Below, piece after piece: positions 7,503-47,447 of a DNA stretch of 49,119 nucleotides. The notes under the pieces are model-generated. The model was not told the DNA's origin. It saw only the letters and a program-made list of their open reading frames with translations, and ran no database searches. The DNA is taken from sequence record PZ465523.1; one strand, written 5' to 3'. The position numbers were made by a program, and so were the translations under genes. Source of the stretch: a phage. Position 1 is the stretch's first letter; every line of letters starts with the position of its first letter.

Positions 7503-7517
7503 TAGCACGAATTGCTA
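7503..7517. promoter_or_regulatory. Dyad box TAGCAcgaatTGCTA directly upstream of tail fiber RBS
   Basis: Palindromic core of the repeated box family; reversed relative to the tail fiber gene. Confidence 0.5.
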
Positions 7518-7561
7518 ATCACTGATTTTATCATTGTGTTACGAGTCTTGCAATGAGCAAC

Positions 7562-7582
7562 AAAAAACCGCCCGAGGGCGGT
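7562..7582 (-). terminator. Rho-independent terminator after primase gene
   Basis: CCGCCCGAGGGCGG stem with U-run on minus strand. Confidence 0.65.
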
Positions 7583-8517
7583 TAGAGTAGATCGCTTGCT
7601 GAGAATAATTTGGCTTGCATTCCTGAACGGTATCCTCCAGGGTTCGGGATTATTATTTTTAATTGTCTGTCGTCAGCCATGTATAAAGTCTCCTTATCTG
7701 AAGGCTCGCAAGCAACCCTTACCTCGCGATCACCCTTGTATCTGTACGCAACCATTTCGAGATTTTCAGGAGTGAAGCAGGACCATACCTCTTGCTTTGT
7801 GTGAAATGCAATATGCTGAGCATCAATCCAATTAAGGCATAAGTAGATCGCTTTTTCAGTTTTACCAGTCACGGCAACCGAGCAACTTGTGTATTTCTTC
7901 GCGTAGAATGACTCCCTTCCTTCCTCATCAATAATCAAAATATTGCAGAACTCATCATCAAGCCCGTCCTCGTGTACAAGTTGACAAGGTATAGTGTGAA
8001 ATACGCTCTCCCCTCCATCCTCGCGACGTTTTACGCCAACGTCGAATGATTCAGTAGGCAGTGACTCAAACATGCTTAATGGAGTGTTTACGCGCCTCTC
8101 TGTGCGACCCATGACTTTCATCACTGCTTCATGATCTGCCATCATGACATTGACACCAGACACCGGAGTCCGGCGCGCTTTCTTGTTTGCCTTGACGATG
8201 TATTCCTGCGGAACCTTTCCGAGAAATCTCCCCAGGATGTTTATACATTCACTGTACGGCATACCAGTTAATTTCATCAACCAACCTATCCCGGAGTCGT
8301 TACCGCATGAGTTGCAGATCGCACCGCCGTCGCCAGGAGTATTCAGGTTATCAGTCCAGCGAAAGCGGTCTTTACCCCCGCAGTTAGGGCAAGGTTGGTG
8401 CTTCTTATTAAAAATATCATTCGGCAATCCGCATATTGACTGGAAAGCCTCGCGCCATAACCCCTTCATGTACGGCAATACGTCCTCTTTCTGAAACATC
8501 ATAAATTCTTCGTTCAC
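7582..8517 (-). CDS. DNA primase-like protein with N-terminal Cys4 zinc ribbon
   Basis: CPNCGG...CNSCG zinc-binding motif and acidic IIDEEG stretch; GTG start with GGAG 8 nt upstream. Confidence 0.55.
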   Translation of the reverse strand: MNEEFMMFQKEDVLPYMKGLWREAFQSICGLPNDIFNKKHQPCPNCGGKDRFRWTDNLNTPGDGGAICNSCGNDSGIGWLMKLTGMPYSECINILGRFLGKVPQEYIVKANKKARRTPVSGVNVMMADHEAVMKVMGRTERRVNTPLSMFESLPTESFDVGVKRREDGGESVFHTIPCQLVHEDGLDDEFCNILIIDEEGRESFYAKKYTSCSVAVTGKTEKAIYLCLNWIDAQHIAFHTKQEVWSCFTPENLEMVAYRYKGDREVRVACEPSDKETLYMADDRQLKIIIPNPGGYRSGMQAKLFSASDLL

Positions 8518-8577
8518 TTCCAGATCTCCAAATAAAAAACGCGTAGAAGGATGTTAACCCGCTACGCGTCGTTTGTT

Positions 8578-9030
8578 TTAACTAAAAATGCTATTTGTCG
8601 TTCCGATATCTTCCTTCTTCACGACGCGCATAAATTTCTTGTTCTTGCATCGCTTCTCAAGGCACTTGCCGTTACCGTCAAACTTCAGATCGAATCGAAG
8701 CCATGCGGCCCGAAACCCTTTGCAACCCTGACGGCGGTAAGCGCGATGTGCAGATTCAGCACCTTGCCACGAAATCATATTGCGATCCTTCCAGCCTTGC
8801 ACGGTCTGATTGCTAACCTTCAGAGCTTTTGCGCAGGCCGCTGGTCCGCCGTAATATTCAATAAGAGCGTCAAGTCGCGCTCGCAGTCCCGCTCGTGTTT
8901 CTTCTTTATGAATATAGAAGCCGCAGCGCTGTCGAGGCTTTTTGTCTTTACCGCGTCGCGTTCCGTTGTTACCATTAATGTGACGTTTATCGATTTCACC
9001 AGTTGACTCTGCGATACGTTGTATATTCAT
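8578..9030 (-). CDS. Helix-turn-helix DNA-binding protein, candidate regulator
   Basis: Cro/YdaS-like HTH segment GGPAACAKALKVSNQTVQGWK; basic N-terminus; start set at ATG 9030 after RBS AGGAGAA. Confidence 0.6.
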   Translation of the reverse strand: MNIQRIAESTGEIDKRHINGNNGTRRGKDKKPRQRCGFYIHKEETRAGLRARLDALIEYYGGPAACAKALKVSNQTVQGWKDRNMISWQGAESAHRAYRRQGCKGFRAAWLRFDLKFDGNGKCLEKRCKNKKFMRVVKKEDIGTTNSIFS

Positions 9031-9043
9031 ATTAATTCTCCTG

Positions 9044-9086
9044 TAGCACTTTTTGCTAAAAACGTTTACTGTATGTCGTGTATTAT
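9044..9086 (+). promoter_or_regulatory. Box-type promoter: TAGCACTTTTTGCTAAAAA, 22 nt, TATTAT
   Basis: Box plus -10-like hexamer at fixed spacing, upstream of helicase gene. Confidence 0.55.
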
Positions 9087-9124
9087 AGCGTAAACGATAC
9101 AACGATTCAAAGGATTAAATAGCC

Positions 9125-11143: not shown

Positions 11144-11556
11144 TTACAGACAATGGTGATTATTTAGAGTTTTACGAGCGAGATCCTAGCGACACTCGAA
11201 AGGAGGACGCTCATCAGGTGGATTGCGTGTCCTGGCTGAAATACAATTTCCCTCACCTTCTATTTTGGCACACTGTCAATGAAGGTGAAAAAACAATCAC
11301 ATCGGCACTAAGGGATGAACAAGCTGGATTACTTAAAGGCGTGTCAGACTTCGTTATCCTGATTGGTGTCAACTCACGATACCCGTTTGCAGCAATAGAA
11401 CTCAAGCGGGTTAATAAGTCAGGCAAAGGAAAGGCGTCACCAGTCAGCGATAAGCAAAGGGAGTTTCTTCGAAAGGTCCGGGAGCGTGGAGGCTTCTCTG
11501 CCGTCGCATACGGATTCGCGCAATTCAAGATCTCAATTTACGAAATGATGAAATAG
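11140..11556 (+). CDS. VRR-NUC-like nuclease domain protein
   Basis: 138 aa with conserved D...E.K spacing typical of VRR-NUC; start overlaps helicase stop. Confidence 0.5.
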   Translation: MITDNGDYLEFYERDPSDTRKEDAHQVDCVSWLKYNFPHLLFWHTVNEGEKTITSALRDEQAGLLKGVSDFVILIGVNSRYPFAAIELKRVNKSGKGKASPVSDKQREFLRKVRERGGFSAVAYGFAQFKISIYEMMK

Positions 11557-11596
11557 CACTTTTTGTTAAAACTGCCGGAATGGAATCTGGCATTAT
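11552..11596 (+). promoter_or_regulatory. Box-type promoter: AATAGCACTTTTTGTTAAAA, 22 nt, CATTAT
   Basis: Upstream of Dam gene; box overlaps stop of VRR-NUC gene. Confidence 0.55.
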
Positions 11597-11623
11597 TATC
11601 TCACCAAAACGAGAGGACTAAAA

Positions 11624-12337
11624 ATGAAAGACTTCAATGATATTGAAACCATCGACTTTGCAGAGACTGGTTGCTCATTCACTCGCGAAGCAATAGCATC
11701 AGGCGGTTATTATCAGGCGCTAAAAACGCCAACCTGCAAAGAGATTTCAGGACGTCGATACAAGGGAACAAATACCCCTGACGCCGTTCGTGATTTATGG
11801 TCAACTCCGCGCGAGGTTATTTCATACCTTGAGGGGCGCTACGGAAAATATGATCTCGACGCTGCGGCAAGCGAAGAAAATAAAGTTTGCGAGAAGTTTT
11901 ATTCTCAGGAAACAAACTGCTTAAAACGTTGGTGGGGTAAAAATAAGCATGTGTGGTTAAATCCTCCTTATAGTCGACCTGATATATTCATCAAGAAGGC
12001 GATCGAGCAAATGGAGCACAACAATCAGATTGATATTCTGTTGCCTGCTGATAATTCTACAGCGTGGTTTACTGAGGCTCGACAGCACGCGGCTGAGATT
12101 ATCTGGATTGAAGCGGATTTGACTGAGGATATCGACGGGAACGAGTACGCACGATCCGGTCGCCTGGCGTTCATATCAGGTGAAACCGGGAAGGCCGTTG
12201 ATGGTAATAACAAAGGTTCTGTGATTTTCATTATGCGCGAACTGAAAGATGGTGAGGTTCAACAGACTCACTATATCCCAATCACAAGCATTTGCCCTTC
12301 AGTTAAAAACAAGCGCGCAAAATTAAGGAAAGTATGA
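11624..12337 (+). CDS. dam: DNA N6-adenine methyltransferase (phage Dam family)
   Basis: DLDAAAS and NPPYS motifs. Confidence 0.75.
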   Translation: MKDFNDIETIDFAETGCSFTREAIASGGYYQALKTPTCKEISGRRYKGTNTPDAVRDLWSTPREVISYLEGRYGKYDLDAAASEENKVCEKFYSQETNCLKRWWGKNKHVWLNPPYSRPDIFIKKAIEQMEHNNQIDILLPADNSTAWFTEARQHAAEIIWIEADLTEDIDGNEYARSGRLAFISGETGKAVDGNNKGSVIFIMRELKDGEVQQTHYIPITSICPSVKNKRAKLRKV

Positions 12338-12585
12338 TGAACGAGAAAATGATTCCTGTTAAGTTAACAGATCAAGGTTTATGGCTACTTTATCGAGCTA
12401 CGTGCTGCGAAATTATGGAGCGAAACGGATTGACTCAGGATGTTATTGGTTGCGATCTGTGGGAGTTCACTAGTTCTCTTGATATGTCTTTCGATGAGAT
12501 AAAAAATGAACATATAGAGAGTTGGCCTTCAATTATCCAGAAAGACGTAGAGGAACTTAAAGCAGATACGATCGCGCAGCACTAA
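12334..12585 (+). CDS. Hypothetical protein
   Basis: ATG overlapping Dam stop; stop codon lies inside the next box. Confidence 0.5.
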   Translation: MMNEKMIPVKLTDQGLWLLYRATCCEIMERNGLTQDVIGCDLWEFTSSLDMSFDEIKNEHIESWPSIIQKDVEELKADTIAQH

Positions 12586-12619
12586 TTGCTAAAAATACCC
12601 GGCGAAAGTCGGGTATAGT
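12578..12619 (+). promoter_or_regulatory. Box-type promoter: AGCACTAATTGCTAAAA, 22 nt, TATAGT
   Basis: Hairpin TACCCG-gcgaaagt-CGGGTA inside the spacer. Confidence 0.55.
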
Positions 12620-12651
12620 TATTTCATTGAGACGAAACGAGGAATCAAAAG

Positions 12652-12861: not shown

Positions 12862-13111
12862 ACGAGAGGTTTGGGAGCACGCGAAGGAATGCGGAATATC
12901 AGACGATATAGCACTAATAGCAAAATATTTCGATATAAAGGATGTTAGCATCATCTCAAACGGAAAGATTTCATTTATGGAAGATATGCCGAGAAAAATG
13001 CATAGAGTGCCAGCCACCCCATCACTTGAGTTTTATCGTGAAGAAGGAAAGAGAATTGAGCGAGAACGAAAAAACGCAAAGAACAACAAGCCTTCCAGGC
13101 TTAAATATTAA
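12839..13111 (+). CDS. Hypothetical basic protein
   Basis: Lys/Arg-rich C-terminus; overlaps frame of 12942..13343. Confidence 0.45.
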   Translation: MLIKKQGKREVWEHAKECGISDDIALIAKYFDIKDVSIISNGKISFMEDMPRKMHRVPATPSLEFYREEGKRIERERKNAKNNKPSRLKY

Positions 13112-13343: not shown

Positions 13344-13421
13344 AACTTTATTTTGCTGTAGTATTAACACCGCTAATTTAATTTTCATTAATGTATTTCA
13401 TTATCATGTAAGGATTAAAAT

Positions 13422-14573
13422 ATGTCACAAGCTAAAATCACCACCGAGCAACTTATCGAAGAGCGCATGAACGGCCTCACACTTCGCGAGATCGCGGAAA
13501 AGTACGGTATGCACATTCGCACTGTTGAAGCGCGCCATGCCAAGCTGGCAAAAGAAGGTCATTTCCACGGTAACGAGCATGTTGCTAAAAACGTGCCCGA
13601 GGGATTCATGGTAAAAGGCACGTCGACGATGATTCGAGGTGATGGGACCGAGGTAGTGCGCTGGGTAAAAACCGATCAGGACCGTGAGAAGATTGCAGCA
13701 ATGATGGAAGCGGCGCGCATTGCATTCTGTGAAGACCTGCCGCGAGCAAAGCCAACCGAGTTACTAACCTCGCAAGGGCTTACTACAGCTATGGGTAAGC
13801 TGGCACTATATCCGGTATTCGACCTGCACATTGGCGCGCTTGCTCACAAGCATGAATGCGGAGAGAACTACTCTACCGACGTAGCTGAAAAAGTGCTTGG
13901 CGACTTCTTCAATTACGCGATCGATATTGCTCCTAAAGCAGAGAAAGCTGTTCTGTTAATCGGCGGTGACTTCCTTCACTCTGACGGTCTTGATGCTGTT
14001 ACCCCGGCAAGCGGTCACGTTCTGGATCAGGATTCACGATACGCAAAATTGGTGCATGTTGCGATCCGTTCGGTGCGTCGCGCTATCGACAAAATGCTTA
14101 TGAAACACAAAGAAGTCGAGGTTCAGATTATTGAAGGGAACCACGACCAGGCCGGGATGATTTGGCTACGCGCTGCAATGTCGGCATATTATGAAGACGA
14201 GCCGCGAGTATTCGTTGACGTTAGCCCTATGATTCTGCATAAGACTCGATGGGGAAACACCTTATTGGGATACACTCACGGGCACACTATGAAAAAGGCA
14301 GACACGCGACTTGCAGCGATGGCGGCAGACTTCCGTGCAGACTTCGGAGAGAGCAAGTATGTGTATACTCATAGCGGTCACTGGCATCATCAGACAATCA
14401 CTGAACACTCGTTAGGTATCGATGAGGTTCACGGTCAGTTAGGAGCGAAGGATGCATACGCAGCACGAGGCGGGTGGCGCTCATATCGTCAGGCGGCGGT
14501 AATCGTTTACGACAAGCAATTTGGTGAGATAGGTCGATTCATCTACCGTCCAGAAATGACAGGATCGCATTAA
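13422..14573 (+). CDS. Metallophosphoesterase (calcineurin-like) with N-terminal HTH-like segment
   Basis: GDFLHSD, GNHD and GHTH-like metal-binding motifs. Confidence 0.6.
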   Translation: MSQAKITTEQLIEERMNGLTLREIAEKYGMHIRTVEARHAKLAKEGHFHGNEHVAKNVPEGFMVKGTSTMIRGDGTEVVRWVKTDQDREKIAAMMEAARIAFCEDLPRAKPTELLTSQGLTTAMGKLALYPVFDLHIGALAHKHECGENYSTDVAEKVLGDFFNYAIDIAPKAEKAVLLIGGDFLHSDGLDAVTPASGHVLDQDSRYAKLVHVAIRSVRRAIDKMLMKHKEVEVQIIEGNHDQAGMIWLRAAMSAYYEDEPRVFVDVSPMILHKTRWGNTLLGYTHGHTMKKADTRLAAMAADFRADFGESKYVYTHSGHWHHQTITEHSLGIDEVHGQLGAKDAYAARGGWRSYRQAAVIVYDKQFGEIGRFIYRPEMTGSH

Positions 14574-14607
14574 TTGCTAAAAATGCCCGAACGGATTCGG
14601 GTATAGT
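14568..14607 (+). promoter_or_regulatory. Box-type promoter: GCATTAATTGCTAAAA, 22 nt, TATAGT
   Basis: Gene stop TAA embedded in box; hairpin CCCGAA-cgga-TTCGGG in spacer. Confidence 0.55.
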
Positions 14608-14638
14608 GACCACATCTAAAACAAAGAGGATGCATATC

Positions 14639-16267: not shown

Positions 16268-16304
16268 GATATTTTCCTTCAGGTCGTTTCGTTTCGATGA
16301 AACA

Positions 16305-16350
16305 AATATACCCGATACGAGATCGGGTGTTTTAACAAAAAGTGCTATTT
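16305..16350 (-). promoter_or_regulatory. Box-type promoter: AAATAGCACTTTTTGTTAAAA, 22 nt, TATATT
   Basis: Hairpin CCCGAT-ctcgt-ATCGGG in spacer. Confidence 0.55.
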
Positions 16351-18437: not shown

Positions 18438-18466
18438 CACAATAAACTCCTTAGTTGACGGTGTGA

Positions 18467-18512
18467 ATGATACACCGCCAATGTTACACGCGTTTTGCAA
18501 AAAGTGCTATTG
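18467..18512 (-). promoter_or_regulatory. Box-type promoter: AATAGCACTTTTTGCAAAA, 22 nt, TATCAT
   Basis: Hairpin CGGTGT-atcattc-ACACCG downstream. Confidence 0.5.
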
Positions 18513-18930: not shown

Positions 18931-18966
18931 TGCGTTCACTCCTGATTGGTTATCTTGAATAAGGCC

Positions 18967-19013
18967 ACTTTATCAAATGACATTACGTCAATATTAACAA
19001 ATCGTGCTATTTA
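18967..19013 (-). promoter_or_regulatory. Box-type promoter: AAATAGCACGATTTGTTAA, 22 nt, TAAAGT
   Basis: Read on minus strand. Confidence 0.5.
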
Positions 19014-19451: not shown

Positions 19452-19484
19452 TTTTAATTCCTTTATTTCGCTTGGTGTGGGAGT

Positions 19485-19530
19485 AATATACCTTACTCCC
19501 TATTTATTGTCTTTAGCAATTAGTGCTATC
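19485..19530 (-). promoter_or_regulatory. Box-type promoter: GATAGCACTAATTGCTAAA, 23 nt, TATATT
   Basis: Hairpin GGGAGTAA-ggtatat-TTACTCCC. Confidence 0.55.
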
Positions 19531-20569: not shown

Positions 20570-20600
20570 GATTCTTTCCTCGTTTGCTGTTGATGGGATG

Positions 20601-20645
20601 ACTATACCAGCCATCCCGGATGCGCGTTTAGCAAAAAGTGCTATC
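20601..20645 (-). promoter_or_regulatory. Box-type promoter: GATAGCACTTTTTGCTAAA, 22 nt, TATAGT
   Basis: Hairpin GGGATG...CATCCC overlapping the -10. Confidence 0.55.
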
Positions 20646-20984: not shown

Positions 20985-21015
20985 TTGGTCATTTCTCTGA
21001 TTGGTTGATGTTTTA

Positions 21016-21060
21016 AATATACCCCGATCACCTTCGGGGCGTTTAGCAATTCGTGCTATT
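21016..21060 (-). promoter_or_regulatory. Box-type promoter: AATAGCACGAATTGCTAAA, 22 nt, TATATT
   Basis: Hairpin CCCCGA-aggtga-TCGGGG in spacer. Confidence 0.55.
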
Positions 21061-21394: not shown

Positions 21395-21432
21395 TTTCCT
21401 GCTCCTGATGTGTATCTCGTTTCGATGAGGTA

Positions 21433-21478
21433 ATTATGCCAAACTACCCCGATCGAGTTTTAACAAAAAGTGCTATTT
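21433..21478 (-). promoter_or_regulatory. Box-type promoter: AAATAGCACTTTTTGTTAAAA, 22 nt, CATAAT
   Basis: Box encodes the Dcm C-terminus NSTFC and its stop. Confidence 0.55.
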
Positions 21479-22164: not shown

Positions 22165-22197
22165 TGCAAATCTCCTGCTGATTGGTTGATGTGATGA

Positions 22198-22242
22198 ATC
22201 ATACCCTGCCAACATAGCTAAGTCGTTAGCAAAAAATGCTAT
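22198..22242 (-). promoter_or_regulatory. Box-type promoter variant: AATAGCATTTTTTGCTAAC, 23 nt, TATGAT
   Basis: Immediately upstream of Dcm leader CAACCAATCAGCAGGAG. Confidence 0.5.
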
Positions 22243-22427: not shown

Positions 22428-22447
22428 TTTTTAGCAAAAAGTGCTAT
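22428..22447 (-). promoter_or_regulatory. Box GATAGCACTTTTTGCTAAAA without a matching -10 at the usual spacing
   Basis: Distal-most box of the leftward arm, followed by hairpin GGAGG...CCTCC. Confidence 0.45.
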
Positions 22448-22856
22448 CCGTCTATATCTTCGTTGTAATTGTCGTAATAGTTGTATACTATCGGGGGTGT
22501 TACAAAATGGCCCCGAAGGGATGGGCCTATATATACTAAAATATCTATATATAATAATAAGATAGATAATATATATATATTTATTTATTATATTATATAT
22601 TGGTATGTAATCGGCGTAATAGGTGCAACCGCATTTTTGGAAGGTGGCATATATTTCAGGGTGCATAGTATAAAAAACATACTATTCCGCGCGTCGAAAT
22701 GGATGTGTGTGCTTTTATAGAAAAAGTCGGTTGCATCGGTTGCACTGGTTACAAAAATAAAAAATGCAGCTATAGACATTGACGCGCCTAGCCAGGTTGC
22801 TGTAACATGTTTTTCGGGGCGGCAAGTTACGCCCGTAGACAACGAGGTATAGACAA

Positions 22857-23432
22857 ATGAAAACTCAGCTTAAAGAAGTAACGGAATTCGAACTCAACTT
22901 GCCGGACTACATTCGCAAGGCGATTGAAAATCACCGTTCAGGGAGTGAGTTCTCAATCACCGGAAAGCAAATGGTAGCTATCTACGTGCATGAGCAAGCC
23001 GAGATCGTAAAGATCACTCAGGATGTTGAGCTAACCGAGGACCAGATTGATGAGGCTATCATTAACGAGTACACGTCGCGCTCAGCCTGGTTGCTCGAAC
23101 GACTCACCGCTTCGTATGTTTCCAATATCATCAAGCGCCACATGCTCAAGGTGCATAACAAGGCCGTGTCGGTTCGAATCAATCGCGATCAGGTGGATGG
23201 CGTGACGATATTCATCACTGAACTGGAAGGTGAGGAAGCAGAAAAGGTCATAGGCGAAGCGAAACAGGGAAAGAGAGGACGGAAGCGTAAGAGCGTAGCC
23301 GATGTGTTCAATGCGAAGGTTGAGGCGTTCAGAATCGATCTGAGAGAGTTTGAAGGAAGCAACATCTCGGTATCGGATCTCAATAAACTGGTGGAGCAAT
23401 TCCGCGCACATTTACTGGGTGAGGAGAAGTAA
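22857..23432 (+). CDS. Hypothetical early protein (191 aa)
   Basis: First gene of rightward early operon; acidic protein with Lys/Arg cluster KQGKRGRKRK. Confidence 0.55.
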   Translation: MKTQLKEVTEFELNLPDYIRKAIENHRSGSEFSITGKQMVAIYVHEQAEIVKITQDVELTEDQIDEAIINEYTSRSAWLLERLTASYVSNIIKRHMLKVHNKAVSVRINRDQVDGVTIFITELEGEEAEKVIGEAKQGKRGRKRKSVADVFNAKVEAFRIDLREFEGSNISVSDLNKLVEQFRAHLLGEEK

Positions 23433-23603: not shown

Positions 23604-23648
23604 AATAGCACTTTTTGTTAAAACCGGATCGGAATAACCTGGTATAGT
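23604..23648 (+). promoter_or_regulatory. Box-type promoter: AATAGCACTTTTTGTTAAAA, 22 nt, TATAGT
   Basis: Read directly; upstream of gene 23680..24168. Confidence 0.55.
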
Positions 23649-23679
23649 AACCCCATCGACAACGAACGAGGACGCAAAC

Positions 23680-24168
23680 ATAAAAATCAAATTACTTTGC
23701 ACTGGCGGTTACAAGGGATTCACCCGCAACCTGGAAGCAGACCCTATCGTGGTTGATGCGGTTAAGTGCGATTCCAGCACTGGAGGCTACCGCGTTAAGG
23801 TTGACGATCTGGTTAAAGCTGGCGTGTACGATCTTGACTATGGACTTTCGGTTAGCCCTGTATTTGGTACGGCTGACTTTAACGAGAATGACGGAACGAT
23901 GTTCTTCTTCGAATGGGAAGTTCAAGCAAATCCTAAGCCGCGCAAGGTTCGACTTCTCAGTAATGGCGGCTACCCGCTGCGACAAGGCTATGAGAACCGC
24001 ACATTCCCAGTTATCGTGGACTTTGAAGAAATTACTAGCAATCTGGCATACGTTAACGATGAGCAGTTGCGAGCCGTTGGATTTGTCGGCGGGATGAATA
24101 AAGAGACGCTTTGCTTCTTCCACTGTAACGCCGAGCCGTTCGATATTGAGTGCGAGTTAGTTTACTAA
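23680..24168 (+). CDS. Cys beta-hairpin repeat family protein; apparent ATA start (ORF-track GTG at 23749 is the alternative)
   Basis: Frame open from 23638; RBS CGAGGA + 7 nt + ATA aligns with leaders of neighbouring genes; repeats IKLLCTGGYKGF and VKCDSSTGGYRVKV. Confidence 0.5.
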   Translation: MKIKLLCTGGYKGFTRNLEADPIVVDAVKCDSSTGGYRVKVDDLVKAGVYDLDYGLSVSPVFGTADFNENDGTMFFFEWEVQANPKPRKVRLLSNGGYPLRQGYENRTFPVIVDFEEITSNLAYVNDEQLRAVGFVGGMNKETLCFFHCNAEPFDIECELVY

Positions 24169-24209
24169 GCACGAATTGTTAAAAGGGGATTTGTCCTGAC
24201 TGGTATAAT
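24166..24209 (+). promoter_or_regulatory. Box-type promoter: TAAGCACGAATTGTTAAAA, 22 nt, TATAAT
   Basis: Gene stop TAA is the first triplet of the box; hairpin GGGGATT...AATCCCC. Confidence 0.55.
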
Positions 24210-24239
24210 CCCCAAGTAAACCACTAAGAGGAAAGAGTT

Positions 24240-24737: not shown

Positions 24738-24886
24738 TGGCTGCATGGGTTTTGATTATCTTAATGAGCACCGGGCCGGATCACGTATACATGGAAAGTC
24801 AGCAATCATGCAACAAGGCTCGGGAAGTAATTGCAGAGAACAAGCCGTTCGGGTACGAAGTTAAAACAATGTGCGTTAAACGATAG
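24737..24886 (+). CDS. Small membrane protein (49 aa) not in ORF track
   Basis: ATG overlaps upstream stop; hydrophobic N-terminus; TAG stop is part of box. Confidence 0.45.
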   Translation: MAAWVLIILMSTGPDHVYMESQQSCNKAREVIAENKPFGYEVKTMCVKR

Positions 24887-24926
24887 CACTAATTGCTAAA
24901 CCTTCCGCAAGGCCATTTGATATAGT
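24883..24926 (+). promoter_or_regulatory. Box-type promoter: ATAGCACTAATTGCTAAA, 22 nt, TATAGT
   Basis: Hairpin AAGGCCA...TGGCCTT spanning the -10. Confidence 0.55.
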
Positions 24927-24966
24927 GGCCTTATTGAAGCAAGGCAACCAATCAGAGGAATCAGCT

Positions 24967-26254: not shown

Positions 26255-26473
26255 ATGGCTACTATCATGACAGCAGAAGATGCAGCACGCGACGCAGTGG
26301 AAGGGATGCGCCCAAATAGCTCCAGAATCGCCCACTACTACAAATCTGATGTGTCGGCAGTGCAATTGGTCCATGAGATTTTAAGGCTACCACAAGTCGA
26401 TTCAGCGCGCGTGGTGACGTGCTTAAAAAATTATTTTTGCATCACTATTAAAACGAATAGCACGAATTGCTAA
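26255..26473 (+). CDS. Hypothetical protein (72 aa)
   Basis: ATG start; C-terminus NSTNC encoded by the box. Confidence 0.45.
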   Translation: MATIMTAEDAARDAVEGMRPNSSRIAHYYKSDVSAVQLVHEILRLPQVDSARVVTCLKNYFCITIKTNSTNC

Positions 26474-26500
26474 AACCTATCAAGGGGAATGCGCTATGAT
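26456..26500 (+). promoter_or_regulatory. Box-type promoter: AATAGCACGAATTGCTAAAA, 22 nt, TATGAT
   Basis: Hairpin GGGGAAT-gcgctatg-ATTCCCC. Confidence 0.55.
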
Positions 26501-26530
26501 TCCCCTACACCAACAAACGAGGAATCACTA

Positions 26531-26974: not shown

Positions 26975-27019
26975 AATAGCACGAATTGCTAAAACTTGCT
27001 CAAGGGCATTTGTTAGAAT
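26975..27019 (+). promoter_or_regulatory. Box-type promoter: AATAGCACGAATTGCTAAAA, 22 nt, TAGAAT
   Basis: Hairpin AAGGGCATT...AATGCCCTT. Confidence 0.55.
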
Positions 27020-27058
27020 GCCCTTCGTTGAGTTAAGCAACCAATCAGAGGAATCAAT

Positions 27059-27907: not shown

Positions 27908-28476
27908 AAACAGCTATCATTTTAAACGGCGCACCTAGAGCGGGAAAAGACACTATCGGATGCATCCTGGCTGACACTTACGATCACGTAGCGCTCCGCA
28001 GCTTCAAGGCTCCAATGTTTGAGATTGCCCGGGCAATCCTGGGTGAAGCTAACTACGAGTATTTCATGTTCTTGTATGATGACCGTCGATATAAAGAAGA
28101 GCCAGCATCAATCCTGAACGGTAAAAGCCCGCGCCAGTTTATGATCTGGATTAGCGAGGAAGTCATCAAGCCGCAGTTCGGAAATCGCTTCTTCGGTATG
28201 CGAGCGGAAAGCGAGGTGAAAGAGTCGAACTCCCTTTCGGTATTTACTGATGGTGGATTCAAAGACGAAATCTTGCAGATGATTGAAGGTGATATCCAAG
28301 TCAAGCTATGCCGCATACATCGCAACGGCTGCAACTTCGATAACGACAGTCGAGATTATATCTACTTGGATGATATGATCGGTGTCAACGGTTATCAGGA
28401 ATGTGATTTCTTCTCTGTCGAAGGTCATCCAGAAATTACCGCTCAGCACATAGCCGCCACGTTCATCAATAAATAG
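27904..28476 (+). CDS. P-loop nucleotide or polynucleotide kinase
   Basis: Walker A NGAPRAGKDT near N-terminus; stop TAG inside box. Confidence 0.6.
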   Translation: MKTAIILNGAPRAGKDTIGCILADTYDHVALRSFKAPMFEIARAILGEANYEYFMFLYDDRRYKEEPASILNGKSPRQFMIWISEEVIKPQFGNRFFGMRAESEVKESNSLSVFTDGGFKDEILQMIEGDIQVKLCRIHRNGCNFDNDSRDYIYLDDMIGVNGYQECDFFSVEGHPEITAQHIAATFINK

Positions 28477-28516
28477 CACGAATTGCTAAAACGTCGATGG
28501 GGTGATTTGATATAGT
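28472..28516 (+). promoter_or_regulatory. Box-type promoter: AATAGCACGAATTGCTAAAA, 22 nt, TATAGT
   Basis: Read directly; kinase stop embedded. Confidence 0.55.
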
Positions 28517-28549
28517 TACCTCATCGACAACCAAGAGAGACAAATCGAA

Positions 28550-30254: not shown

Positions 30255-30264
30255 TAAACACTAA

Positions 30265-30286
30265 CCCGCTCCGGCGGGTTTTTTTA
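30265..30286 (+). terminator. Rho-independent terminator ending the rightward early operon
   Basis: CCCGC-tcc-GGCGGG stem followed by TTTTTTT. Confidence 0.7.
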
Positions 30287-30303
30287 TGCCTGCAATATGG
30301 TAA

Positions 30304-30322
30304 AATAGCACTAAATGTTAAA
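30304..30322 (+). promoter_or_regulatory. Degenerate box AATAGCACTAAATGTTAAA upstream of terminase small subunit
   Basis: TATGGT hexamer just upstream; RBS AAAGAGG downstream. Confidence 0.4.
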
Positions 30323-30338
30323 CAAAGAGGATGGATTT

Positions 30339-37484: not shown

Positions 37485-37512
37485 TTGACGCTTTAACAAA
37501 AAGTGCTATTAT
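37485..37512 (+). promoter_or_regulatory. Sigma70-like promoter (TTGACG, 16 nt, TATTAT) with reversed box in the spacer
   Basis: Read directly; upstream of major capsid gene. Confidence 0.55.
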
Positions 37513-40122: not shown

Positions 40123-40510
40123 GTTATCAGCGGCGGCGCGAGCCGCCTTTCTGTCGAAGTATAGAGACTTTCCTCACTACATGGAAAACAGGAACTTTAC
40201 ACCGCCGAAGGATGGCGGAATGTGGCTAAGGTTCAACTACATTGAAGGGGATACGCTTTATCTATCAATTGACAGAAAGTGTAAATCTTACATCGCAATC
40301 GTTCAGATCGGCGTAGTGTTCCCTCCAGGCTCCGGCGTTGATGAGGCAAGATTGAAAGCAAAAGAGATTGCCGATTTTTTCAAAGATGGTAAAATGCTTA
40401 ACGTTGGTTATATTTTTGAGGGTGCAATCGTGCATCAAATTGTTAAACATGAAAGCGGATGGATGATTCCAGTTCGTTTCACGGTACGAGTAGACACAAA
40501 GGAGACTTAA
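40112..40510 (+). CDS. Tail completion-like protein
   Basis: Position immediately before major tail protein. Confidence 0.45.
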   Translation: MHYELSAAARAAFLSKYRDFPHYMENRNFTPPKDGGMWLRFNYIEGDTLYLSIDRKCKSYIAIVQIGVVFPPGSGVDEARLKAKEIADFFKDGKMLNVGYIFEGAIVHQIVKHESGWMIPVRFTVRVDTKET

Positions 40511-41220: not shown

Positions 41221-41254
41221 TGTAGAATCATCGTATCAACTTTATTCACTTCAC

Positions 41255-41274
41255 TTTTAACAAAAAGTGCTATC
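41255..41274. promoter_or_regulatory. Reversed box TTTTAACAAAAAGTGCTATC directly before tail chaperone leader
   Basis: Followed by CAACCAATCAGGAGAA and ATG. Confidence 0.5.
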
Positions 41275-41293
41275 AACCAATCAGGAGAACATC

Positions 41294-41950: not shown

Positions 41951-41966
41951 GTATATAGGGGACTAT

Positions 41967-44840: not shown

Positions 44841-44842
44841 TA

Positions 44843-45196
44843 ATGGCGACACTTGACACTTTCGGTTGGTGTACGCAGGTTCAAGGGGGCGGTGGCTCCC
44901 TTACCACTACCAATAACGACCGCTCCATCCAGTTTGGTAATGGCTACATGCAGCTTGCATTGTCTGGATTTAACACCACTCGACGCGAGTATTCAGTTGT
45001 CTATGCCGGGGAAGATTTCATGGATGTTTACGACTTCTGCGATTCTCACCGCATTAAGCCGTTCGCATGGATGCCGCCGGACGGGAAGATCGGGATATGG
45101 GTTGTCAAGCCTAACAGCCTGGGAGCGAAGCCAGTATCACGCGACGTGATGGAGATTAACGTAACGTTTATTGAGCAGTTTACATCTATGAAATAG
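44843..45196 (+). CDS. Minor tail protein (lambda M-like)
   Basis: Size and position after tape measure; RBS AGGAGG. Confidence 0.65.
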   Translation: MATLDTFGWCTQVQGGGGSLTTTNNDRSIQFGNGYMQLALSGFNTTRREYSVVYAGEDFMDVYDFCDSHRIKPFAWMPPDGKIGIWVVKPNSLGAKPVSRDVMEINVTFIEQFTSMK

Positions 45197-45212
45197 CGCC
45201 ACATAACAAAAG

Positions 45213-45234
45213 CCCGCCTTGCGCGGGTTTTTTT
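45213..45234 (+). terminator. Rho-independent terminator (cassette copy 1)
   Basis: CCCGCCTTGCGCGGG followed by TTTTTTT, then TAGAAT. Confidence 0.7.
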
Positions 45235-45275
45235 GTAGCTGTAGAATGGTTGCTGGTAAACAAGAGGAAAAATCA

Positions 45276-46058
45276 ATGAGCGAAAACAAAAAACTTTATG
45301 ATGAAGAAAGCGGGAGAAGCCTGTTTCACAACTGCCTACAATCACTGTATCCTGGCGAGATAATCACCCTTATTGAAGTTGATGGTAGTAAGTTCGGTGC
45401 TCAGGTGTACAGATTCCACGGGGAGAATATCCAGTACACTCCAGAAGAAATCATGCAGGCCCAGCAAACAGGAACGCTGCCGCCGAAAGAAATTACCTTC
45501 CGTGGCGAGCAATACGGCGCAAGACCTTTTGGTATATCAGGGATCTCGTTCGACAGTTCAGGCAAGGCTACAAAACCACAATTAACGGTAGCAAACATTG
45601 ATAGTAGAGTGTCTGCGATGATTCGCGCGTATAACGGATTGATGCAGGCGAAGGTGACAATCTGGATCACTCAAAAGGACTTAATTAAACCTGATGGCTC
45701 AATCGCTGACGGTGCTTATCGGAAGCTGGTATACTATATCGAACGCCCGAGCTATGTCGATAAGAGCGTTGCAAGATTCGATCTCACGTCGCCGTATGAT
45801 ATGGATGGAATCATGATACCGTCACGACTCACGCAAAGCGTTTGCTATTGGGCGCAGCGTGGCTGGTATAAAACCGGGAAAGGTTGCGGATACAACGGGC
45901 AAAACGGTTACTTTGACAAAGACAATAATCCTGTAGATGATCCCGCGCTCGACTTCTGCCCGGGAACGGTAACTGCCTGCCGCCTTCGGTTCGGTGCAAA
46001 CAATGAATTGGATTTTGGCGGCTGTGCTGTCGCTTCACTACAGAGGAAAAATCAATGA
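45276..46058 (+). CDS. Minor tail protein (lambda L-like)
   Basis: Cys cluster near C-terminus; start after RBS AAGAGGAAA. Confidence 0.65.
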   Translation: MSENKKLYDEESGRSLFHNCLQSLYPGEIITLIEVDGSKFGAQVYRFHGENIQYTPEEIMQAQQTGTLPPKEITFRGEQYGARPFGISGISFDSSGKATKPQLTVANIDSRVSAMIRAYNGLMQAKVTIWITQKDLIKPDGSIADGAYRKLVYYIERPSYVDKSVARFDLTSPYDMDGIMIPSRLTQSVCYWAQRGWYKTGKGCGYNGQNGYFDKDNNPVDDPALDFCPGTVTACRLRFGANNELDFGGCAVASLQRKNQ

Positions 46059-46789
46059 TTAGTGCAAAAATTAAACTTGAAATCATGACCCACGCTCAAG
46101 AAGAATACCCCCGCGAATGCTGCGGGGTAGTTACCCAAAAGGGCCGGGTGCAAAAATACCATAGAGTCGATAATGTGCATCGTGATCCTGAAAATCATTT
46201 CATGATGGATGCTGTGCAGTACGCATGTATTGAGGACGACGCGGAATCAACCACGATCGCAATTGTTCATAGTCATACCGGGGACGGAGCTACAACTCTT
46301 CCAAGCGCTCACGATACGTGCATGTGTAATGAGATGGAGGTGACCTGGGTTATTGTTAGCGTACCGGAAGGAGATATGCGATTTGTGAAGCCTGAGAAAT
46401 TACCTCTGATTGGTCGTCCGTGGTCGTTAGGCTCATTTGACTGTTACGGTCTTGTTATGGCTTGGCACAAAGAGCACGGCGTAGAATTGCGCGATCGAAG
46501 GTTGAATTTTGAATGGTGGAAACCGGAATATGGAATTAATCTCTATCAGGATTATTACAAGCAAGATGGATTCGTTGAGATTCCAGATCAGAATAATCCG
46601 TCGCTCGGTGATATGGTAATCATGCAGATAGGGCAAAATGTTCCGGTGTGGAACCATGCAGGGATTTACCTGGGTGATAATCAGATCTTGCATCACGCAT
46701 TCGGAAAGCTATCACGTCGTGATATTTATTCCGGCTGGTATCAGGATCACACGGTTTTAATTGTTCGCCATAAGGATCTTAAATTATGA
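46055..46789 (+). CDS. Tail assembly protein (lambda K-like), MPN/JAB plus NlpC/P60-like
   Basis: JAMM-like HSHTGD motif and Cys/His-containing C-terminal domain. Confidence 0.7.
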   Translation: MISAKIKLEIMTHAQEEYPRECCGVVTQKGRVQKYHRVDNVHRDPENHFMMDAVQYACIEDDAESTTIAIVHSHTGDGATTLPSAHDTCMCNEMEVTWVIVSVPEGDMRFVKPEKLPLIGRPWSLGSFDCYGLVMAWHKEHGVELRDRRLNFEWWKPEYGINLYQDYYKQDGFVEIPDQNNPSLGDMVIMQIGQNVPVWNHAGIYLGDNQILHHAFGKLSRRDIYSGWYQDHTVLIVRHKDLKL

Positions 46790-47385
46790 ATGATGTAAAA
46801 GTAATCAAATTATCCGGTTCGCTTGGTAGGCGCTTCGGGGTCTTTCACCGCTTTGCTGTTGACTCTTACCCGGAAGCCATTCGTGCACTATCCAGTCAGG
46901 TAGATGGATTTAAAGAATACATGCAGAGCGAGGTGGGATCACGTAGCAAGTTTGCAATATTTGTAGATGGCGTTAACGTTGGACACCATGAAGAGGAAAA
47001 ATTCAAGTGCGCCAAAGAGATAAGGATTGTCCCGATCCCGACTGGTTCTAAGTCCGGCGGTCTATTCCAGGTTGTATTGGGTGCGGCAATAATGGTTGCG
47101 GCATTCTATACTGGCGGCGCATCTCTGGCGTTAATGGGCGCAATGTCCTCATCACTGTTTATGATGGGCGGCGCTATGGTGCTGGGAGGCGTGATGCAGA
47201 TGATTTCACCGCAGCCCGGAGGGGCAAACTTTGAAGTTCAATCAAGCAAGAATAAACCTTCGTACGCGTTCGGTGGTGCTGTCAATACGACTGCGGCGGG
47301 ATACCCTCTCCCGGTCCCGTATGGATATCGCGCCGGAGGTGGCGCAACTTTCTCAGCAGGTTCTTATGCTGAGGATATGAGTTAA
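46786..47385 (+). CDS. Tail assembly protein (lambda I-like)
   Basis: Gly/Ala/Met-rich hydrophobic C-terminal half. Confidence 0.65.
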   Translation: MNDVKVIKLSGSLGRRFGVFHRFAVDSYPEAIRALSSQVDGFKEYMQSEVGSRSKFAIFVDGVNVGHHEEEKFKCAKEIRIVPIPTGSKSGGLFQVVLGAAIMVAAFYTGGASLALMGAMSSSLFMMGGAMVLGGVMQMISPQPGGANFEVQSSKNKPSYAFGGAVNTTAAGYPLPVPYGYRAGGGATFSAGSYAEDMS

Positions 47386-47391
47386 AATATA

Positions 47392-47414
47392 CCCGCCTTG
47401 CGCGGGTTTTTTTT
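47392..47414 (+). terminator. Rho-independent terminator (cassette copy 2)
   Basis: Same stem CCCGCCTTGCGCGGG followed by TTTTTTTT. Confidence 0.7.
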
Positions 47415-47420
47415 CGCCTG

Positions 47421-47447
47421 TATAATGGGTTCACAGATAAATAGCAC
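47421..47447 (+). promoter_or_regulatory. Promoter before J-like gene: TATAAT followed by AATAGCAC half-box
   Basis: Read directly. Confidence 0.5.

Follow-up and report, generated by a model that had tools for sequence, protein, structure and literature searches.

A repeated box in a T1-like phage genome matches the host marbox and suggests promoters dependent on MarA, SoxS or Rob

A box repeated through this phage genome has the sequence of a host marbox, is held in one orientation and at a set spacing in promoters that lack a −35 element, and belongs to a module conserved across the phage family. We judge that it is probably a consensus marbox, and that the promoters carrying it are class II promoters activated by host MarA, SoxS or Rob (RamA in Klebsiella). 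The marbox is an asymmetric 20-bp site bound by one molecule of these AraC-family proteins. This reading suggests that phage gene expression depends on host activators of stress and antibiotic resistance.

The window, meaning the whole stretch of 49,119 nucleotides analysed (record PZ465523.1), holds a T1-like genome of the Drexlerviridae. The repeat has already been published as a 21-nt 'direct repeat', function unknown (TLS re-annotation, 2024). The searches run found no literature linking marboxes to T1-like phages; what is new appears to be the identity of the box as a marbox.

Sequence and symmetry of the repeated box

The original prediction described a dyad box, TAGCA-N5-TGYTA, and the repeat is real: a search of the whole window with TAGCANNNNNTGYTA gave 30 strand-matches, corresponding to 21 sites, against 0.11 expected from shuffles (maximum 2). 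The predicted coordinates were right to within 1–3 nt. Five extra copies are one base off (8579, 12577, 14565, 18495 and 24167), and a degenerate copy missing from the original list lies at 12908-12927, with TAGCAT 20 nt downstream. The box reads AATAGCAC...TTGYTAAAA. Within it, C follows TAGCA yet T precedes TGCTA, and one and the same strand is A-rich in both flanks. About 40% of copies have TGTTA as the right half, the left G is invariant, and the best-conserved positions are GCAC and TG. Because conserved positions outside the 5+5 core break the symmetry, the inverted repeat is probably not what defines the element, and its dyad symmetry is for the most part incidental. The earlier view of the repeat as the core of the element is thus not borne out, given the asymmetric flanks and right half and a marbox pattern that matches one strand per site.

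The marbox has been defined as the non-palindromic, oriented sequence 5'-gcannwwntgnnaaa-3' (PMC12052159). This pattern has 20 perfect matches in the window, against 0.80 expected, each on one strand. The classical marbox 20-mer, AYnGCACnnWnnRYYAAAYn, is reportedly that of Martin et al. 1999; against this consensus, the sites average 12.7–13.2 of 14 specified positions. The box agrees with both consensus sequences at all specified positions. It is tighter than the marbox consensus: position 3 is A, positions 11 and 15 are T, and the central triplet is limited to TTT, GAA or TAA. This extra constraint could come from a second or different reader.

Host Lrp is a rival candidate reader, its consensus yAGhAwATTwTdCTr being likewise 15 bp with outer AG...CT (PMC5554404). 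TAGCACTTTTTGCTA agrees with it at 13/15 positions, but the GAA and TAA variants reach only 11/15, TGTTA copies have one match fewer, and the box has no match to the central ATT, a strongly conserved part of the Lrp site. A palindromic site would also leave GCAC, the flanking AAAA, the orientation and the fixed spacing unexplained, and we regard Lrp as a most improbable reader.

Architecture of the marbox promoters

At about 19 intergenic junctions a forward box overlaps the place of the −35 element, 20 bp upstream of a −10 that is often TGn-extended. The promoters and related sites, with marbox and −10 positions, are as follows.

9043..9093, plus strand: class II marbox promoter, helicase gene; marbox 9043-9062, −10 TATTAT 9081-9086, predicted start 9093
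11553..11603, plus strand: marbox promoter preceding the Dam methyltransferase gene; marbox 11553-11572, −10 CATTAT 11591-11596, TGG before the −10
12576..12626, plus strand: marbox promoter; marbox 12576-12595, −10 TATAGT 12614-12619
12908..12958, plus strand: degenerate marbox promoter copy; marbox 12908-12927, one mismatch, −10-like TAGCAT 12946-12951
14564..14614, plus strand: marbox promoter ahead of the lysis cassette and a small ORF; marbox 14564-14583, −10 TATAGT 14602-14607
23605..23655, plus strand: marbox promoter, rightward early arm; −10 TATAGT 23643-23648, TGG extended
24166..24216, plus strand: marbox promoter; −10 TATAAT 24204-24209, TGG extended
24883..24933, plus strand: marbox promoter, 0 mismatches to the 20-mer consensus; −10 TATAGT 24921-24926, inside a hairpin
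26457..26507, plus strand: marbox promoter; −10 TATGAT 26495-26500
26976..27026, plus strand: marbox promoter preceding the polynucleotide kinase operon; −10 TAGAAT 27014-27019
28473..28523, plus strand: marbox promoter; −10 TATAGT 28511-28516
8544..8594, minus strand: degenerate box that follows the regulator gene and precedes the primase gene; −10-like TAACAT within the loop of a genuine terminator hairpin
16298..16348, minus strand: marbox promoter, leftward arm; marbox 16329-16348, −10 TATATT 16305-16310
18460..18510, minus strand: marbox promoter preceding the second helicase gene; −10 TATCAT 18467-18472
18960..19010, minus strand: marbox promoter, one mismatch to the 15-mer; −10 TAAAGT 18967-18972, TGA extended
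19478..19529, minus strand: marbox promoter; marbox-to-−10 spacing 21 nt, not 20, −10 TATATT 19485-19490
20594..20644, minus strand: marbox promoter, 0 mismatches to the 20-mer consensus; −10 TATAGT 20601-20606
21009..21059, minus strand: marbox promoter, 0 mismatches to the 20-mer consensus; −10 TATATT 21016-21021
21426..21476, minus strand: marbox promoter; −10 CATAAT 21433-21438
22191..22242, minus strand: marbox promoter preceding the Dcm-like methylase gene; 21-nt spacing, one mismatch to the 15-mer, −10 TATGAT 22198-22203
22428..22447, minus strand: orphan perfect marbox without a −10, in a non-coding stretch of about 430 bp between the divergent early arms

Several of these sites have counterparts in related phages: the helicase promoter is kept in T1, TLS, Rogue1 and Sin4, the degenerate copy at 12908..12958 corresponds to position 40309 of T1, the degenerate box at 8544..8594 to DR10/T57 of TLS, and the orphan marbox is conserved at position 105 of T1. 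Hairpins are found at two further promoters: one with a GNRA loop (12595-12616) in the spacer of 12576..12626, and the most stable (−23 kcal/mol) around the −10 of 28473..28523.

As the original prediction held, the spacing is fixed. A −10-like hexamer follows TTGNTA in 18/20 of the copies first listed, after 22 nt (n=16) or 23 nt (n=2; copies 19514 and 22227), and the two exceptions it named, 22432 and 30306, are exceptions here too; by the same criterion such hexamers occur at 2.2% of window positions. The box lies forward with its centre near −41, and 20 nt separate it from the −10. Across five genomes, 64/73 sites have exactly 20 nt between GCACnnnTTGyTAAA and the −10, about half (34/73) have a TGn-extended −10, and 51/73 have a C(−1)A(+1) start motif 7 nt downstream, plus or minus one base. 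A −35 element better than random sequence was found at 0/73 sites, where matches are 2–4/6. Canonical sigma70 promoters are scarce (24 between positions 5900 and 24000, against 32.5 expected from shuffles), and only three sigma70-like promoters, P57 among them, were found in TLS (TLS re-annotation, 2024). These results uphold the earlier view that TTGNTA does not serve as a −35 element. The box keeps a constant distance from a plausible −10, and its most suitable reading is that of an activator site in promoters without a −35.

Reading of the box by RNA polymerase itself, as an UP element, an odd −35 with a long spacer or a sigma54-type site (TGGCAC-N5-TTGCW), seems to us scarcely credible. 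The UP element was suggested by the TLS authors (TLS re-annotation, 2024), the box is invariant across hosts with the same polymerase, and there is a superficial resemblance to TTGACA and to TGGCAC...TTGC. However, an UP element is rich in A/T and located further upstream, and the best-conserved positions here are GCAC and TG; a 22-nt spacer is beyond the sigma70 range; the invariant GG of sigma54 sites is AG here, with a GG-to-GC distance 2 bp short; and a sigma70-type −10 with TGn stands at a fixed distance from the box.

We propose that a host activator would bind the box and touch RNA polymerase, a contact that would replace the missing −35 and recruit the sigma70 holoenzyme, with a predicted start at the A of CA about 7 nt past the −10. 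Such promoters would drive nearly all early and middle units, comprising host-takeover ORFs, helicases, methylases, polynucleotide kinase and lysis genes. The label 'early' holds only loosely for these promoters, which are found in front of replication, methylase, polynucleotide kinase and lysis genes as well.

Boxes at late genes

Boxes at late genes had been described as reversed or partial, and they do occupy different, non-activating positions: those at the capsid (37494) and tail chaperone (41258) genes are reversed, that at J (47441) is partial, and a near-box follows the tail fibre promoter (7503).

7502..7553, minus strand: sigma70-type promoter TTGCAA-17-TGATAAAAT (7553-7525) of the lateral tail fibre gene, −10 TAAAAT
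30298..30324, plus strand: perfect marbox (30305-30324) at terS, overlapping a possible extended −10 (TGGTAAAAT, 30298-30306) and its start site
37490..37509, minus strand: perfect marbox antisense to late genes, between a stop codon and the terminator preceding the capsid gene
41223..41273, minus strand: perfect marbox antisense to late genes, weak −10 TACGAT 41230-41235 at 20 nt
47421..47460, plus strand: TATAAT 47421-47426 after a terminator, then a partial box (47441-47460, one mismatch), J gene

The near-marbox at 7502-7521, written on the plus strand, lies at about +1 to +15 of the tail fibre promoter. The terS marbox, directly after a terminator and directly before the terS ribosome-binding site, is conserved at 8363 of T1; its position is non-activating and possibly repressing. 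On the capsid side the hexamer at the usual spacing is poor (TATGAG). The tail chaperone box adjoins the ribosome-binding site of that gene on the plus strand, and its T1 equivalent has TAAGAT at equal spacing. The J box comes after the predicted start site and ahead of the J start codon. A box reversed, or on or after the start site, would not activate there and might repress.

The TLS authors raised the possibility of a negative, 'stoperator'-type element (TLS re-annotation, 2024), at which a bound protein blocks or shuts off self-sufficient extended −10 promoters. Such an element would fit the repressing positions that the box takes at late genes and in the promoter of the regulator, and the half of the promoters with an extended −10 could work activator-free. 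The other half lack the TG extension, strong unaided promoters would be expected to retain a −35, which 0/73 do, and the near-constant spacing and single orientation are traits of a promoter element, not of a roadblock. We consider a mainly negative role very unlikely.

Candidate readers and known class II promoters

The original prediction named a phage protein as the candidate box binder.

8578..9030, minus strand: gene for a Cro-like HTH regulator of 150 aa, a weak profile match
9075..9110, minus strand: near-consensus sigma70 promoter of the regulator gene; −35 TTGAAT 9110-9105, −10 TATAAT 9087-9082

Binding of a dimeric phage HTH protein, most likely this regulator, to TAGCA-N5-TGCTA at about −42, where it would activate promoters or later shut them off, would resemble Mu Mor/C or lambda cI at PRM; we hold it to be unlikely, with some points in its favour. 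The regulator is a core gene, present in 825 Drexlerviridae records. Its promoter, equivalent to P57 of TLS and sharing a −10 region with the helicase promoter, could allow it to be made first. A marbox at about +13 to +32 of this promoter falls within the 5' leader DNA, a placement expected of an autoregulatory operator, which counts against a host reader. The 5+5 dyad, with half-sites one helical turn apart, would suit an HTH dimer, as would the tighter constraint of the phage box. However, the dyad is broken outside the core, the C/T variation of the right half is that of marbox position Y14, and a symmetric site needs no strict orientation relative to the −10. The HTH assignment is weak (P22_Cro, 23.3 bits, under the 30.2-bit Pfam cut-off). 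The regulator diverges to about 53% identity between phages and its predicted recognition helix differs by subfamily (NQTVQGWK, LKTVWGWK, RQAVEEWC, IQVVQQWR), whereas the box is invariant; this divergence beside a conserved box points to a conserved external reader. Finally, a phage dimer would make coincidences of the perfect marbox match and the base-for-base micF spacing. The regulator thus fares poorly as the box reader, and a monomer of host MarA, SoxS or Rob is the better fit. A phage-encoded MarA-like gene was sought and not found: tblastn with MarA (query verified against PDB entry 1bl0) gave a best E of 0.11, and Pfam gave no AraC-type HTH in 21 early proteins.

The predicted host reader is also consistent with conservation. 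The comparison across T1-like genomes proposed at the outset finds box and spacing kept in T1, TLS, Rogue1, Klebsiella phage Sin4, A134 and Yersinia phage YP10S2, and the module recurs 12–17 times per genome in T1, TLS, Rogue1, the Klebsiella Webervirus, the Yersinia phage and one further Tempevirinae record. The A134 record gives its host as Campylobacter, which to our knowledge is without MarA, SoxS and Rob; this counts against a host factor, tempered by the UNVERIFIED flag on the record and its GC content of 43.9%. Two further points weigh against host factors. In the absence of stress, cells hold little MarA and SoxS, and their Rob, though abundant, is largely inactive unless an inducer is present. 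Classical T1-resistant mutants reportedly fall in fhuA and tonB rather than in rob, marA or soxS, so no single one of these three would be essential; redundancy of the three factors and basal activity of the extended −10 could explain the absence of such mutants.

The original analogy to activator-dependent middle promoters, taken as those of T4, is a loose one; the close match is to host class II marbox promoters, whose forward sites cluster near −41 with no recognisable −35 and a canonical −10 and start (PMC10268841). The phage sites are alike in their random-level −35 matches and good −10 elements. The mar promoter marbox, ATGCCACGTTTTGCTAAATC, has 16/20 identity to the phage consensus, and the spacing at fumC is 19 nt, compared with 20 nt in the phage. 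The class II site of micF has its centre at about −41, with CACT-7X-AAA on the top strand (PMC8811837), where the phage box has CAC(T/G)-7X-AAA. In E. coli K-12, micF reads GCACTGAATGTCAAA, 20 nt, TAGAAT and then the start: the spacing is that of the phage promoters, and the hexamer is the −10 of the phage promoter at 26976..27026.

A repeated promoter box in T1-like phages

The window holds the genome, complete or nearly so, of a T1-like siphovirus (Drexlerviridae, Tunavirinae), with the gene order of T1 and approximately 90% identity over large stretches to the Shigella phages Sfin-1 and pSf-2 and the Escherichia phages AV106 and LeonhardEuler. The repeated box, first recognized as a dyad-symmetric element, is real: the pattern TAGCA-N5-TGYTA gives 30 strand-matches at 21 sites in the window, compared with a mean of 0.11, and never more than 2, in dinucleotide-preserving shuffles. 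Five further copies are each one base off this pattern, and an additional degenerate copy at 12908–12927 is absent from the original list. Alignment of the 18 copies directed at a downstream gene yields the consensus aATAGCACnnnTTGyTAAAa. The predicted fixed spacing between TTGNTA and a −10-like hexamer is borne out in these copies, being exactly 22 nt in 16 and 23 nt in the other 2; by the same criterion, such hexamers occur at only 2.2% of window positions. The two copies named as exceptions to this spacing (22432 and 30306) are indeed exceptions, and the description of the copies at late genes as reversed or partial, in or next to a conventional promoter or ribosome-binding site, is also correct. 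Calculated by hand from box and ORF coordinates, the distance between box and start codon in the window is approximately 71–83 nt.

The repeat itself is already known. According to extracts from the 2024 re-annotation of phage TLS, this phage carries 21 copies of a 21-nt direct repeat (DR) with the consensus aaATAGCACnnnTTGnTAAAA, located between genes, along the direction of transcription and about 76 nt before start codons; the same extracts mention the repeat for T1, Rtp and Rogue1, report only three σ70-like promoters and no polymerase or sigma gene, and leave the function of the repeat open, raising stoperators, enhancer-binding sites and UP elements as possibilities (PMC11447400). The box in the window corresponds to the repeat described there as DR1–18, with which it shares consensus, direction and the TTT and GAA sub-types of the central triplet, whereas the third sub-type is AAA in the extracts from the TLS paper and TAA in the window (PMC11447400). 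These extracts contain no fixed −10, class II geometry, position relative to a start site, host factor or identity with the marbox, the asymmetric sequence bound by MarA, SoxS and Rob, which are AraC-family activators of the host (PMC11447400). In the literature searched, we found neither the fixed −10 nor a class II marbox identity for the repeat, and no work linking the marbox, MarA, SoxS or Rob with T1-like phages.

Promoter anatomy was analysed in a pooled set of 73 sites from the window, T1, TLS, Rogue1 and the Klebsiella Webervirus Sin4. The −10 hexamers in this set are TATAGT, TATTAT, CATAAT, TATATT and similar sequences. The TG of an extended −10 is present at −15/−14 in 34 of the 73 sites (TG as a dinucleotide has a frequency of 6.8% in the window), and in 51 a CA lies 7 nt 3′ of the hexamer, give or take one base, corresponding to the usual pyrimidine (−1)/purine (+1) start. 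As the original prediction argued from its spacing, TTGNTA is not a −35 element; nor is there another one, the best match to TTGACA at a spacing of 16–18 nt being 2–4 of 6 bases in all 73 sites, as at random positions. With a good −10 and no −35, the box promoters are thus of the −10 or extended −10 type. Relative to the predicted starts, their conserved element spans about −50 to −31. The spacing between the marbox-like element and the −10 is 20 nt in 64 sites and 19 or 21 nt in the remaining 9, which places the centre of the 20-mer at −40.5 to −41.5 if the start is taken to lie 7–8 nt after the hexamer. Canonical promoters show no excess in the early region, where a simple scan finds 24 compared with 32.5 expected.

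The marbox and candidate readers of the box

In a 2025 genome-wide study, the marbox is defined as 5′-gcannwwntgnnaaa-3′ (PMC12052159). Allowing no mismatch, this sequence has 20 matches in the window, where 0.80 are expected, and every perfect match falls on one strand only; the dyad pattern double-counts. The classical 20-mer consensus, AYnGCACnnWnnRYYAAAYn, is reportedly that of Martin et al. 1999, and the box sites match this sequence at an average of 12.7–13.2 of its 14 specified positions. The marbox of the mar promoter, ATGCCACGTTTTGCTAAATC, is identical to the phage consensus ATAGCACTTTTTGCTAAAAC at 16 of 20 positions, and that of micF, in host sequence retrieved for comparison, is ACAGCACTGAATGTCAAAAC. 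Every promoter-type copy is directed at the gene downstream of it and, like the micF site, has its GCAC end on the far side.

Marbox promoters fall into class I, with the site in reverse orientation at about −62 or −72, and class II, with the site in forward orientation over the −35 region, near −41 (PMC12052159, PMC10268841). Class II promoters have no recognizable −35, their −10 and start are canonical, and at micF σ70 is displaced from the −35 by Rob or SoxS (PMC10268841). In a cryo-EM study of RamA, the micF site lies at about −41 and its top strand reads CACT-7X-AAA (PMC8811837); the phage box in forward orientation reads CAC(T/G)-7X-AAA. From the AAA of the marbox to the −10 there are exactly 20 nt in E. 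coli K-12 micF (TAGAAT) and 19 nt in fumC, whereas sodA, the third host promoter compared, has no marbox above the thresholds used. Judged by sequence and by predicted start sites, the box promoters display every sequence-level feature of a class II marbox promoter.

The dyad symmetry originally ascribed to the box holds for the 5+5 core and fails over the other conserved positions, where it is broken by C5/T9 and the AA/AAA flanks: a C follows TAGCA, a T precedes TGCTA and both flanks are A-rich on the same strand. The left G is invariant, whereas its partner is C in approximately 60% and T in approximately 40% of copies; the right half reads TGTTA in approximately 40%, as position Y14 of the marbox permits. 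The dyad is probably incidental to a marbox, because the consensus YnGCA...TGYYA is itself partly self-complementary and one phage-specific base (A at position 3) suffices to turn it into TAGCA-N5-TGCTA. MarA binds as a monomer, and its two HTH motifs recognize CGTG and TTT, which are separated by seven bases (PMC8811837). The strict orientation of the box would follow from binding of such an asymmetric monomer.

Other identities fit the box less well. A symmetric operator of a dimeric HTH protein of the Cro/cI type does not fit unequally conserved halves and a dyad limited to the core. A σ54 promoter (GG-N10-GC, with GG at −24 and GC at −12) was rejected, because the box has AG instead of GG and its AG-N8-GC spacing is 2 bp short. 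The Lrp consensus yAGhAwATTwTdCTr (PMC5554404) is matched at 13 of 15 positions by the TTT-type box and at 11 of 15 by the GAA and TAA types, with the central ATT unmatched; only the outer bases fit, and the GAA and TAA variants do not.

Box and spacing are unchanged across four subfamilies (T1, TLS, Rogue1 and Sin4), and also in a Yersinia ruckeri phage, where 13 of 16 perfect boxes have a −10 at 19–21 nt, and in phage A134, where 15 of 16 do. The protein originally put forward as the reader of the box, a 150-residue Cro-like HTH regulator encoded at 8578–9030 (−), is a core gene product found in 825 records, with approximately 53% identity between subfamilies; a sequence search against solved structures gave no meaningful match. 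Its Cro-like Pfam match is below threshold, and the recognition helix predicted on this sub-threshold assignment reads NQTVQGWK, LKTVWGWK, RQAVEEWC and IQVVQQWR in the four subfamilies, varying at positions 1, 5 and 6. The helix varies but the box does not, which argues against this protein as the reader. An invariant box beside a drifting regulator suggests instead that the reader is a conserved host protein and not one half of a co-evolving phage pair.

On this sequence evidence, we regard host MarA, SoxS or Rob as the likely reader, with some reservation. The hosts named for these phages, the label of A134 aside, are Enterobacterales, which, as far as is known, have Rob and usually also MarA and SoxS. 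That a phage-encoded protein such as the Cro-like regulator reads the box seems unlikely, given the drift of its helix, although the host marbox consensus is looser than the phage box, leaving room for a second reader. The phages themselves yielded no MarA-like gene in a tblastn search of six phage genomes (query checked against 1bl0; best E = 0.11), and Pfam detected no AraC-type HTH in 21 early proteins.

The record of 'Campylobacter phage A134' (MG065663.1) is flagged UNVERIFIED and names Campylobacter jejuni as the host, but it belongs to the Tempevirinae, has 43.9% GC and carries 15 marbox promoters of enterobacterial type; the host label is probably misattributed. In a scan of IMG/VR with the box, all contigs with multiple copies are 41–52 kb long, the size of T1-like genomes, and the other contigs have one match each, probably by chance; the scan takes the box no further than the T1-like family.

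Boxes at other positions, nested hairpins and leader motifs

Several boxes and promoters in the window depart from the class II arrangement.

Boxes and promoters outside the class II arrangement
9110–9082 (−): near-consensus promoter of the regulator gene, TTGAAT-17-TATAAT, from a promoter scan
30262–30324: terS; strong terminator, possible extended −10 TGGTAAAAT, perfect box over the −10 and predicted start, then ribosome-binding site
47392–47460: J; strong terminator, TATAAT, partial box at or immediately after the predicted start, then ribosome-binding site
Tail fibre gene: near-box after TTGCAA-17-TGATAAAAT
37490–37509 (−): perfect box opposing late genes, weak −10 TATGAG at the standard 20 nt
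41223–41273 (−): perfect box (41254) opposing late genes, weak −10 TACGAT at the standard 20 nt
22428–22447 (−): orphan perfect box without −10, in the approximately 430-bp non-coding stretch 22428–22857 between the divergent early arms

Within 9075–9110, the TATAAT of the regulator promoter overlaps the plus-strand helicase −10, TATTAT (9081–9086). The predicted starts of the regulator (9075) and helicase (9093) lie on opposite strands, 18 bp apart, and the marbox occupies +13 to +32 of the regulator promoter, in the DNA of the regulator leader. The shared −10 region points to a bidirectional promoter with a choice of direction. Extracts from the TLS paper describe the same regulator/helicase layout, with P57 and DR11 (PMC11447400).

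At terS and J, the elements follow the same order before both late genes, each with a promoter-like hexamer of the −10-only kind. Here the box could repress rather than activate, and marboxes over the core promoter are treated as potentially repressing (PMC12052159); repression of late genes by these and the other boxes outside class II positions is speculation. T1 retains the opposing box at 41254, there with TAAGAT as its −10, and the opposing boxes may be antisense promoters directed into the 3′ ends of a head gene and the major tail gene. The non-coding stretch with the orphan box also contains a σ70-like TTGACG-18-TAACAT (22779–22808) before the first rightward gene, and its T1 equivalent is in the terminal repeat; it may have pac or origin functions.

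A stable inverted repeat directly follows the marbox in all 82 sites analysed in the window, T1, TLS, Rogue1 and Sin4 (in the window, for example, at 12595–12616, 24893–24935 and 28477–28512). The mean folding energy (MFE) of these hairpins is −12.6 kcal/mol, compared with −6.2 kcal/mol (s.d. 3.0) for shuffled sequences. In 31 sites the inverted repeat is contained in the spacer, ending at −13, and in 51 it surrounds the −10; the sequence of the arms varies among sites while their complementarity is kept. In 100 sites aligned on the −10, covariation of the arms by column gives only weak signals, indicating that the hairpins have no fixed register with respect to the −10. A cruciform presenting the −10 to the polymerase was dropped as an explanation for this reason.

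Folding is slightly more stable in the sense than in the antisense direction (−12.6 versus −11.1 kcal/mol, p = 7e-4), with similar counts of G–U pairs. Of the 18 hairpins in the window, a simple terminator scan passes 3 when read in the sense direction and a further 2 in the antisense direction. Annotations of T1 and SA30RD label several box hairpins rho-independent terminators; real T runs are found in few, such as that after the regulator gene, and are absent from most. Our best guess is that these are probably 3′-end hairpins, terminators or stabilizers, of the upstream RNA, fitted into those parts of the following promoter that are sequence-neutral. In E. coli K-12, the fumA terminator hairpin stands immediately upstream of the fumC marbox, followed by the −10, and this compact order of terminator, marbox and −10 resembles the phage junctions.

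The 5′ leaders contain a second conserved motif, AACCAATCAG, which has 8 copies in the window compared with 0.10 expected. Six of these are in leaders and run directly into the ribosome-binding site in the form AACCAATCAG(G)AG; in many other leaders the sequence is CATCGAnAACGAnACGAGGA.

Copies of AACCAATCAG in the window
18942–18951 (−)
20997–21006 (−)
22178–22187 (−)
24946–24955 (+)
27039–27048 (+)
41275–41284 (+)
31669 (−)
44661 (+)

A separate observation concerns the gene at 13422–14573 (+), which encodes a 383-residue metallophosphatase-like protein equivalent to T1 gp16 and annotated 'DNA repair exonuclease'. Residues 15–38 match Sigma70_r4_2 and HTH_23 weakly, with E values of about 0.01 that are below the cut-offs, and may provide a nuclease or phosphatase with a DNA-binding head.

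Proposed mechanism and known systems

We propose that a molecule of host MarA, SoxS or Rob (RamA in Klebsiella) would bind each box, and that the bound activator would recruit σ70 holoenzyme to the −10, replacing the missing −35. Rob, the production of which is constitutive, could serve unstressed cells, and MarA or SoxS would raise expression under stress. To our knowledge, classical T1-resistant mutants map only to fhuA and tonB, which suggests that no single activator is essential; redundancy and basal activity of the extended −10 could explain why single factors are dispensable. Rob also senses signals directly (PMC12052159).

In a more elaborate scheme, which we consider decidedly improbable, the host stress activator would be both switch and timer. 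Class II boxes would turn on approximately 19 early and middle promoters while start-site boxes hold down those of terS, J, the tail fibre gene and the regulator; replicated genomes, at hundreds of copies with approximately 25 high-affinity sites each, would then titrate Rob, MarA and SoxS, so that early transcription fades and late transcription is released. Were this so, the wild type would be a poorer host than multidrug-resistant up-mutants of mar, ram or sox, and than cells in contact with bile or salicylate, and infection would drain the host's own mar regulon.

Work on T1 goes back to the 1940s, and the T1-like phages, that is, the Drexlerviridae with the Klebsiella Weberviruses among them, belong to the siphoviruses that are isolated most frequently on enterobacterial hosts. 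For the transcription of their genomes, the class II marbox would be a concrete answer that is cheap to test. If correct, it would tie a whole virulent phage family to the intrinsic multidrug-resistance regulators MarA, SoxS, Rob and RamA, and bear on phage–antibiotic combinations, host range in Enterobacterales and phage behaviour in the bile-rich gut. It would also supply approximately 100 natural, near-consensus class II marbox promoters for mechanistic work. A virulent phage family with early and middle transcription dependent on host multidrug-resistance activators would be new.

The closest known counterparts are the class II marbox promoters of E. coli and Klebsiella (micF, fumC and others), which MarA, SoxS, Rob or RamA activate. 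These share with the phage promoters the consensus, the forward orientation, the absent −35 and the canonical −10 and, going by predicted phage starts, a centre near −41 and a canonical start; the 20 nt from AAA to −10 are those of micF. The host promoters serve a stress regulon, whereas the phage promoters are in a virulent phage genome, which has approximately 19 near-perfect marboxes in 49 kb, far nearer to consensus than the typical degenerate host sites. Each phage box promoter also has a stable nested hairpin, unlike its host counterparts.

Activator sites in place of a −35 are known from other systems. In T4 middle promoters, which are of the activator-dependent kind invoked in the original prediction, a MotA box near −30 replaces the −35, the σ70 −10 is kept and AsiA remodels sigma region 4. 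The combination of a box in place of the −35 with a σ70 −10 is the same here, but no MotA or AsiA homologue was seen in the window, and the position of the box differs by approximately 10 bp. The CRP-dependent class II promoter galP1 resembles the predicted layout of the phage box promoters in that it lacks a −35, has an extended −10 and binds its activator around a centre at −41.5, whereas CRP is a dimer on a 22-bp palindrome and its site is unrelated in sequence. The Mor- and C-dependent middle and late promoters of Mu likewise have a good −10, no −35 and an activator site over the −35 region, near −43. However, Mor and C are encoded by the phage and recognize a dyad as dimers, whereas the T1-like box is asymmetric and fits a host monomeric activator.
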